From: Vulcanimicrobiales bacterium
GTDB lineage: Bacteria; Vulcanimicrobiota; Vulcanimicrobiia; Vulcanimicrobiales; Vulcanimicrobiaceae
Length of the DNA stretch: 32,589 bases
Assembly: GCA_038231455.1 (NCBI GenBank)
Contig: JBBRLI010000031.1
Location: forward strand, 1 to 32,589
Reading direction: 5' to 3'
Shown here: positions 1 through 1,433 of the stretch, one piece after another
Position numbering within the stretch: the first letter of the stretch is position 1
How the letters are laid out: every line of letters begins with the position of its first letter
The notes under the pieces: generated by a model
Told to the model about the DNA's origin: nothing
Database searches by the model: none
The model's input: only the letters and a program-made list of their open reading frames with translations
Program-made: the position numbers and the translations under genes

Positions 1-720
1 ATCGGCCTGGCGACCGAGCCGCCGCCGCTGCACATGTCATTCACAGGCGGCCCGGGCACCGGAAAAACCACCGTCGCGATGCGCATGGCCGAAATATTGC
101 ATCGCCTCGGGTACGTGCGTAAAGGGCATCTCATCGCCGTTACGCGCGACGATCTGGTCGGTCAATACATCGGCCACACGGCGCCGAAAACGCGCGAGGT
201 CATCAAACGCGCGAAAGGCGGCGTGCTCTTCATCGATGAGGCCTACTACCTCTATAAAGCCGAGAACGAGCGCGACTACGGCGGCGAGGCGATCGAAATC
301 TTGTTACAGGCAATGGAGAACGACCGCGAGGACTTGGTCGTCATCTTCGCCGGATATAAAGAGCGTATGGAGCAATTCTTCTCGAGCAATCCCGGCTTGA
401 AGTCGCGCGTCGGCAGTCACGTCGACTTCCCTGACTATCCGGCAGACGAACTGTTGCAGATCGCCGATTTGATGCTCGAGCGCTTGAACTATCGTTTCGG
501 CGGCGACGCGCGTGCGGTTTTTGCCGCGTATCTGGACCGGCGTATGACGCAGCCGTTCTTCGCGAATGCCCGCAGCGTGCGCAACGCAATCGGCCGCGCG
601 CGCTTGCGACAGGCAAATCGTCTGTTCGCACTCGGCGGCGTTCTCTCCAAAGATGCGCTGATGACGATCGAAGCGGAAGACATACGCAAGAGTCGCGTGT
701 TCGACGAAACCGCTTCGTGA
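1..720 (+). CDS. cbbX: CbbX, AAA+ activase of red-type (form IC/ID/IE) Rubisco; 5'-truncated by window edge
   Basis: Frame open from base 1 ([24 protein letters not shown], Walker A); [14 protein letters not shown] pore loop, [11 protein letters not shown]alker [19 protein letters not shown] and FANARSVRN motifs are typical of CbbX. Confidence 0.93.
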
Positions 721-1433
721 TCGTCGATGTCGCGGTGACCCCCGCAGCGCTGCGCTCGATCGATGCCGGTCGAACCATAGCCGTCCTCGATGTGTTGCGC
801 GCGACGACGACGATCGTCGCGGCGCTCGCAGCGGGTGCGAGATCCGTCTTGCCTTTCGAAGAACCCGAAGAAGCGCTGGCTTTCGCCGAGCTGCATGGCC
901 GGGCCAACTACATCTTGGGCGGAGAGCGCGAGAGTCGCCGAATCCCGGGCTTCGATCTGGATAACTCCCCGCGCGCCTACACGCGCGACCGCGTGAGCGG
1001 CGTGACGATCGTCTTCACGACGACCAACGGTACGCGTGCCTTACGGCGCGCTGCGGAGGTCGGTTCGCGCGTGCTGATCGCAACCTTACGCAATCGCACC
1101 GCCGTCGCGCACGCGCTGCTCGTGGGCGGCGACGCAACGCTCGTGTGCGCGGGCTCGCACGGTGACTGGAGCTTCGAGGACTTCATCGGCGCAGGTTCGA
1201 TCCTCGCCGCGATGCGCGACCGCGAACCGGGCATCGCCCTGGGCGACGGAGCATTTGCCGCACTCTCGGCCTACGCGCGACATGCGCGGGCGCTCCACGC
1301 GGCGGTCGCCCGCGGCACGCATGCCCGGCACCTCATCGCCGCAGGTTTTTCCGACGACGTCGTATGGTGCTGCGAGGAAGATCGAACCGGGATCGTACCG
1401 GTGCTGACCGACGGACAGATTACCGCCGTTTAA
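717..1433 (+). CDS. comB: ComB-family (2-phosphosulfolactate phosphatase-like) phosphatase
   Basis: Motifs [13 protein letters not shown]...[20 protein letters not shown]...[12 protein letters not shown] start overlaps cbbX stop (GTGA 717-720). Confidence 0.9.

Follow-up and report, generated by a model that had tools for sequence, protein, structure and literature searches.

What is a gene of the ComB phosphatase family doing at the end of a Rubisco operon? The question is raised by a stretch of DNA from a Vulcanimicrobiales bacterium (contig JBBRLI010000031.1, positions 1 to 32,589; in the following this whole stretch of 32,589 nt is called the window). It opens with the C-terminal 239 codons of cbbX, a gene of the red-type Rubisco activase family (1..720, forward strand; TIGR02880, 427 bits, profile positions 51–284 of 284, with the AAA and AAA_lid_6 domains). 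This is followed by a comB-family phosphatase gene of 238 aa, the final gene of the operon (717..1433, forward strand). As a direct reading of the sequence reveals, the two genes share the four bases GTGA at 717..720: the GTG start codon of comB lies at 717 and the TGA stop codon of cbbX at 718–720. The overlap, which the initial sequence-only reading had already pointed out, is borne out by the profile matches of both products, and the same 4-bp overlap exists in another genome of the same genus (G001). It suggests translational coupling of comB to cbbX. Our answer to the question, drawn from sequence comparison, is that in this soil-type bacterium the operon-final ComB probably clears a toxic by-product of Rubisco, a task which elsewhere is the job of an unrelated enzyme.

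The assignment of the window protein to the ComB family is based on several lines of evidence. It matches PF04029 with 215 bits (cut-off 26.4; E 1e-63), residues 15–232 covering profile positions 10–225 of 226, and this is its sole Pfam match; no HAD match was obtained. Solved structures of the ComB fold are matched by sequence as well (1vr0, E 6.6e-40; 2yyv, E 4e-39; 2z0j, E 1e-22). An alignment of 37 homologues contains 42 invariant columns, acidic and basic residues among them, and the consensus of these homologues starts at the N-terminus of the window protein (MI...DVA.TPA). Because of this shared N-terminus and the 42 invariant columns, the comB gene looks functional. At the level of equivalogs the protein stays below all NCBIfam cut-offs, the best being NF002054 with 197 versus 330 bits. 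The archaeal ComB equivalog TIGR00298 yields 123 bits versus a cut-off of 175, and membership among the true 2-phosphosulfolactate phosphatases is thus not reached at this level. The protein is not among the TIGR01449 matches of its genome either and does not belong to the HAD-type CbbZ/Gph family; it may work like CbbZ without being a member of that family. Among named organisms, Candidatus Lustribacter, Velthaea and Baltobacteraceae have the closest homologues, and related loci carry Eremiobacteraeota or Vulcanimicrobiota in their titles. When longer homologues were searched as possible fusion proteins, one match was found, without an extra Pfam domain, and the C-terminal extensions of four homologues of 367–393 aa gave no match to the cbb query set. 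A second, far more divergent type of PF04029 paralogue (63–92 bits versus about 215–245 for the main type) was seen in G102, G138, G175, G200, G254, G265 and others, sometimes beside the main type.

The window begins within cbbX and represents the first 32.6 kb of contig C31 in an assembly of 3.71 Mb and 106 contigs, 93.7% complete (genome G000). Its start is identical over 141 bases to the reverse-complemented end of contig C27, and these bases are common to these two contigs only; therefore, C27 supplies the upstream part of the operon. It carries the 5' part of cbbX (103 codons, 145 bits) and a form I cbbL (NF003252, 772 bits versus a cut-off of 438). The cbbS open reading frame (ORF) shows a weak match to the CcmM repeat (19 bits), and its assignment is based on position and on ORFs of 58–96% identity that follow cbbL in 15 related loci. 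A LysR-type gene is divergent from cbbL; CbbR is its best match, at 176 bits, which is below the cut-off of 450. Genes for phosphoribulokinase (prk; enzyme PRK) and for a class II fructose-bisphosphatase (FBPase; GlpX) are located 6–8 kb away. The genes are tightly spaced, cbbL and cbbS being separated by 9 bp, cbbS and cbbX overlapping by ATGA, and cbbX and comB by GTGA, and from this spacing we infer that comB is co-transcribed with cbbL-cbbS-cbbX. The identical, uninterrupted order cbbLSX-comB is found on a single contig in G001, the proteins of which are 99% (RbcL), 97% (CbbX) and 88% (ComB) identical to those of the window genome and whose full-length cbbX scores 490.7 bits versus a cut-off of 459. 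Contigs from two other public runs also span the cbbX-comB junction (X3, two records; X4, one record of 5121 nt). The layout is that of a form I cbbLSX operon with a divergent LysR regulator; the label red-type rests on the presence of CbbX. An absence of cbbLS upstream of cbbX had been set beforehand as a reason to give up the idea of a phosphatase recruited to a red-type CBB operon, and both genes were found, on C27 as well as in G001.

The association of comB with cbb genes extends over much of the family. We surveyed 301 genomes of the same family as the window genome (Eremiobacterota/Vulcanimicrobiota, going by the names of homologues), with a threshold of E<=1e-40 for cbbX. The genome samples are mostly incomplete and the absence of a match means that none was found in the genomes searched; four of the genomes counted carry a flag as unpublished (G009, G178, G281, G068), and no specific claim depends on them. 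ComB was found in 63 genomes and cbbX in 46, with 22 genomes having both. Of these 22, 15 carry comB and cbbX on one contig not more than 15 kb apart, an arrangement that chance alone would produce in roughly 1% of genomes of similar size. Eleven genera possess both genes, and 8 of them are represented among the 15 genomes. Furthermore, cbbX occurs in 11 of 14 ComB-bearing genera versus 16 of 64 others, counts which are not independent as the genera are related. A ComB is present in half of the family genomes with a form I-like RbcL (22/44) versus 41/257 of those without.

The fetched loci of the linked genomes, in which genes were called by ORF picking, tblastn and Pfam, fall into at least five architectures. 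In the first (A), cbbR is divergent from cbbL-cbbS-cbbX-comB and all genes are directly adjacent (G000, G001, G041, G226, G075); in one genus the same arrangement has 1.7–9 kb of unrelated genes between cbbX and comB (G154, G131, G171, G092). Architecture B consists of fbaI-fbp-prk-comB beside cbbR-cbbLSX (G129, G089), whereas in B' the order is comB-fbp-prk, 14 kb from cbbLSX (G019, G104). In C, cbbR-comB is divergent from cbbLSX-prk-glpX-fbaI (G272), and in D cbbLSX is convergent with comB (G098). The linked ComBs in this comparison are 35–48% identical to that of the window. In B and B' comB is still within the operon, even though the PRK is of another type and the FBPase belongs to class I. 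Genus g80 is represented by 44 genomes in a phylum-wide sample of 196; one of the 44 has ComB and one has cbbX. Both are in the same genome, G272, and here comB lies inside the cbb cluster. In five further genomes of g80, nothing past about position 4000 of the 18-kb locus of G272 is matched at the DNA level, which concerns the entire part from a peptidase gene through comB and the cbb genes; they share only scattered pieces of this locus. Trees for ComB and RbcL, both quick builds with SH-aLRT support only, have the groupings G019+G272+G098, G075 with the g85 genomes, and G041+G226 in common.

As the linkage persists through rearrangement and the two genes co-occur, there is good comparative evidence that the ComB of this family is functionally tied to the Calvin cycle. 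The sequence-only reading had named conservation of the cbbX-comB synteny in relatives as a check. It holds for linkage, which is kept in several gene orders, but direct adjacency is confined to some genera, and among 41 near relatives it was seen only in G001. Searches of the best-scoring ComB loci described below had suggested that the adjacency is genus-specific; this view was overturned by the coordinate survey of the 301 genomes.

Some further features of these clusters deserve mention. Two Calvin-cycle kits exist in the family: the window genome has a cyanobacterial-type PRK and a class II FBPase (GlpX), while G019, G129 and G089 have another PRK type (30% identical) and a class I FBPase (L185 3949–5972; L194 7844–9531; L004 8011–10061). 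An ORF of ~540 aa without Pfam match adjoins cbbX in G005 and G034 (L179 9235–10857; L183 6061–7707), where comB is not beside cbbX; by ORF picking the one in G034 is on the opposite strand. On a 5-kb contig of G023 (L180, G023:C36, 2381–4269) prk is directly followed by cbbX without rbcLS between them, and the only rbcL match of this genome is a fragment on another contig.

What could the substrate be? No aerobic Calvin-cycle organism is known to do without the removal of 2-phosphoglycolate (2-PG). In proteobacterial cbb operons, as in Cupriavidus and Rhodobacter, this is done by the HAD-fold 2-PG phosphatase CbbZ/Gph. ComB resembles it in being a small soluble phosphatase encoded in a CbbR-controlled operon next to cbbLSX, and 2-PG is the proposed common substrate; unlike CbbZ/Gph, it has an unrelated fold (PF04029, no HAD match), and its activity on 2-PG is at this stage a proposal. 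The ComB of Methanocaldococcus reportedly hydrolyses 2-PG and 2-phospholactate in vitro, besides phosphosulfolactate. We suggest that the window protein is a Mg-dependent 2-hydroxyacid-phosphate phosphatase that was recruited as the 2-PG phosphatase of these cbb clusters, an assignment of substrate and physiological role which we infer and to which we give an even chance. Controlled by the divergent CbbR-like regulator, and sharing a transcript and translational coupling with cbbL-cbbS-cbbX, comB would deliver an enzyme that, with Mg, forms glycolate by hydrolysing the 2-PG arising from the oxygenase activity of Rubisco, and would thereby fill the role of CbbZ/Gph. The enzyme would be a broad 2-hydroxyacid-2-phosphate phosphatase acting on 2-PG and on by-products of the 2-phospholactate type. 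Owing to this broad range it would be retained in relatives that lost Rubisco, since 2-PG and 2-phospholactate arise elsewhere, too. The eukaryotic PGP offers a parallel: this HAD phosphoglycolate phosphatase is a metabolite-repair enzyme acting on 2-PG, 2-phospholactate and 4-phosphoerythronate. The window ComB would have a similar dual role, clearing 2-phospho-hydroxyacid by-products with or without Rubisco; it differs from PGP in its ComB fold, and its breadth of substrates is predicted. In its most general form, the proposal is that the ComB fold constitutes a non-HAD class of 2-PG phosphatases, serving as dedicated photorespiratory or oxygenase-repair enzyme of the Eremiobacterota cbb clusters, moving or persisting with the cbb island, and doubling as a general repair enzyme for 2-phospho-hydroxyacids, by which it would outlive Rubisco. 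For this wider statement we see the chances as just short of even.

The inventory of other phosphatases bears on this proposal in two ways. None of the 301 family genomes, with or without ComB, has a canonical gph (TIGR01449) above cut-off. Likewise, no HAD genes were seen in the cbb clusters of five genomes in which ComB is missing or unlinked. When these cbb clusters encode an extra phosphatase it is ComB. The sequence-only reading went further and regarded ComB as a non-orthologous displacement of CbbY/CbbZ. Such a displacement is not demonstrable because gph stays below cut-off in all 301 genomes; in Rubisco genomes without ComB, for which gph in place of ComB would have been the complementary pattern, there is hence no contrast. 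Speaking against a role for ComB in 2-PG removal, the window genome also encodes five HAD-IA hydrolases of generic type, including a PGMB/YqaB-subfamily member located on a 1.9-kb contig, each of which could be the real phosphatase for 2-PG or xylulose-1,5-bisphosphate. For the fate of the glycolate, three GlcD-like genes (453–501 bits) are available in this genome, two of which adjoin partial matches to the GlcD family that may be GlcE-like; the GlcD-like products could oxidise glycolate onward.

Also on the opposite side stands the distribution of ComB, which leads to the most serious rival explanation, namely that this is an old phosphatase with a housekeeping role in the phylum, unrelated to carbon fixation, beside which cbb genes were inserted and repeatedly deleted. 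First, no cbbX match was found in 41 of the 63 family genomes with ComB, and outside the family, in a phylum-wide sample of 196 genomes, ComB was found in 22 of 87, a single one of which has a cbbX over cut-off, the two genes being unlinked. The ratio of nonsynonymous to synonymous substitution rates (dN/dS) of comB is 0.17–0.38 between pairs of Rubisco-less genomes versus 0.16 for G000/G001; thus, comB is under purifying selection also in the absence of Rubisco. Second, in L094/L095, from one metagenome strain with a ComB 75% identical to that of the window, comB and prk are intact and the downstream neighbour is the same, beside a decaying cbb operon: of rbcL about 61 codons are left, cbbS is missing, cbbX survives as frameshifted fragments and glpX has been truncated. 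Third, in genus g34 a cbbR-cbbLSX cassette of 3.7 kb is present in G226 and absent from G159 and G201, with a clean boundary about 60 bp upstream of comB, which makes comB a resident neighbour rather than a part of the cassette; cassette-bearing and cassette-free g34 genomes are intermixed in the ComB tree. Fourth, in genus g53 comB has a non-cbb context, and in its Rubisco-bearing member G060 the cbb cluster is 2.7 Mb away. Fifth, 24 of the 46 cbbX-bearing family genomes lack a ComB match, and therefore another enzyme must handle 2-PG there.

When neighbours of ComB loci were searched by tblastn with CbbX, RbcL, RbcS, two PRK types and two FBPase types, none of the best 80 of 591 loci from species genomes, which lie outside the family and come mostly from Gemmatimonadota, Planctomycetota, Bacteroidota and Bacillota, had cbbX, rbcL or rbcS within 7 kb. 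Taking the best 80 of these 591 together with the best 80 of 103 metagenome loci, no cbb gene was present within 6–7 kb, save for L094/L095. In a published comparison PF04029 is not enriched globally, with 0.090 copies in Calvin-positive versus 0.088 in Calvin-negative genomes (PMC7895386). To judge from these distributions, ComB is not a Rubisco-only accessory. PRK was considered as the true partner of ComB and rejected: its distribution (NF005655; 35 of 301 genomes) largely follows that of Rubisco, and in g34 ComB is far commoner than PRK (36/44 versus 13/44), therefore ComB is independent of PRK, too.

Nevertheless, a mere historical neighbour would hardly be expected to follow the cbb genes as comB does. 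After rearrangement it is co-directional with differing cbb genes, standing after cbbX, after prk, before fbp or after cbbR, and some of the linked clusters use other types of PRK and FBPase. In addition, the sole ComB of the 44 g80 genomes is situated inside the sole cbb island of that genus, and the excess of cbbX in ComB-bearing genera, although these are not independent, points in the same direction. We therefore consider this explanation unlikely, albeit the one among the rivals to be taken most seriously.

Rubisco operons at several stages of decay were noticed in the course of this comparison. Besides the rbcL and cbbX fragments of L095 (5432–5992), split or partial matches to rbcL or cbbX are found in G301, G084, G092, G018 and G098. 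Such remains point to autotrophy having been lost more than once in this family, although some of the splits may be assembly errors.

A second rival keeps the tie to Rubisco and assigns another substrate. CbbY, which in Rhodobacter is encoded after cbbX, is a HAD-fold phosphatase for xylulose-1,5-bisphosphate. In analogy, ComB might remove a Rubisco inhibitor, this sugar bisphosphate or a related misfire product, following its release by CbbX, and the coupling to cbbX would be explained. Indeed, comB like cbbY is directly downstream of the activase gene, with the 4-bp overlap in G000 and G001 and by adjacency in G041, G226 and G075; in Rhodobacter, cbbX is followed by cbbY and cbbZ. The analogy weakens in other genera, in which comB is attached to prk/fbp or to cbbR instead of cbbX. 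Moreover, ComB differs from CbbY in its fold, and characterised ComB acts on 2-phospho esters of 2-hydroxy acids and is not known to act on ketose bisphosphates. An inhibitor-specific enzyme would also fit poorly with the retention of ComB without Rubisco. In sum, we find a CbbY analogue improbable, more so than the neighbour hypothesis.

Methanogen ComB and the Bacillus subtilis YitC, which are 2-phosphosulfolactate phosphatases (structures 1vr0, 2yyv and 2z0j), share family and fold with the window protein by sequence, and the invariant acidic and basic residues are kept; they differ from it in that the latter has no ComA partner among the genes found, stays below the equivalog cut-offs and has a Calvin-cycle context rather than one of sulfonate synthesis. 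That the window ComB is a genuine enzyme of this kind, making sulfolactate as in coenzyme M synthesis or in Bacillus spores, is highly improbable: its PF04029 membership and the sulfur-related genes around some of the clusters (in G019, TauE and rhodanese following cbbX; in G075, a CysN-like gene and adenylylsulfate (APS) kinase following comB) would fit, but ComA (PF02679) had no match in the window genome or in 10 out of 10 other genomes with linked comB, the controls B. subtilis and M. jannaschii being positive, and TIGR00298 is missed as stated above. The absence of comA from genomes with cbbX-comB synteny was a check named by the sequence-only reading; its observation that the window holds no further coenzyme M gene is borne out, as none was detected by Pfam among the ORFs. 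The window genome gave no match to CofD either. Because of the missing ComA and CofD matches, phosphosulfolactate and the 2-phospholactate of the F420 type are both unlikely substrates of this ComB.

With 2-PG as its substrate, ComB would be an accessory phosphatase of a cbb operon built on another fold. Outside subscription journals and closed supplements, no paper was found in which ComB is connected to Rubisco, photorespiration, the Calvin cycle or the cbb genes of Eremiobacterota. If our proposal is true, the ComB-fold enzyme names one missing phosphoglycolate phosphatase of Calvin-positive bacteria, the large bacterial ComB family, mostly without ComA, obtains a testable function, and the carbon-fixation module of Eremiobacterota gains an extra component. 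According to the comparison already cited, 416 Calvin-positive genomes have no annotated phosphoglycolate phosphatase, 447 have one copy and 143 have two (PMC7895386).

The operon is bounded on its 3' side by a gene outside the system, coding for a WtpA-like solute-binding protein on the reverse strand (1430..2689; PF13531, 105 bits; WtpA models below cut-off). As this convergent gene ends at 1430, the transcription unit of comB goes no further than comB itself. The stop codons of both genes overlap at 1430–1433, which leaves no space for a terminator between them. Within positions 1–3200 of the window no promoter-like sites were found, and terminator-like matches amount to two versus 4.0 expected by chance. 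The WtpA-like neighbour downstream of comB is kept in G001 and L095.

On the other side, in G000 and G226, genes for a histidine kinase of GAF/LytS type and for a LytTR response regulator come after the CbbR-like gene and are co-directional with it (G000:C27 2287–4999; L189 3600–6314). This pair stays next to comB in relatives without the cbbR-cbbLSX cassette, and the cbb cluster may have in it a second regulator. Finally, on the reverse strand of the window at 3640–6539, a rhodopsin gene (PF01036, 130 bits) lies beside genes for a Brp/Blh beta-carotene dioxygenase and a lycopene cyclase; together these make up a retinal-making light-energy module, only 2–5 kb away from this genome's Rubisco operon.

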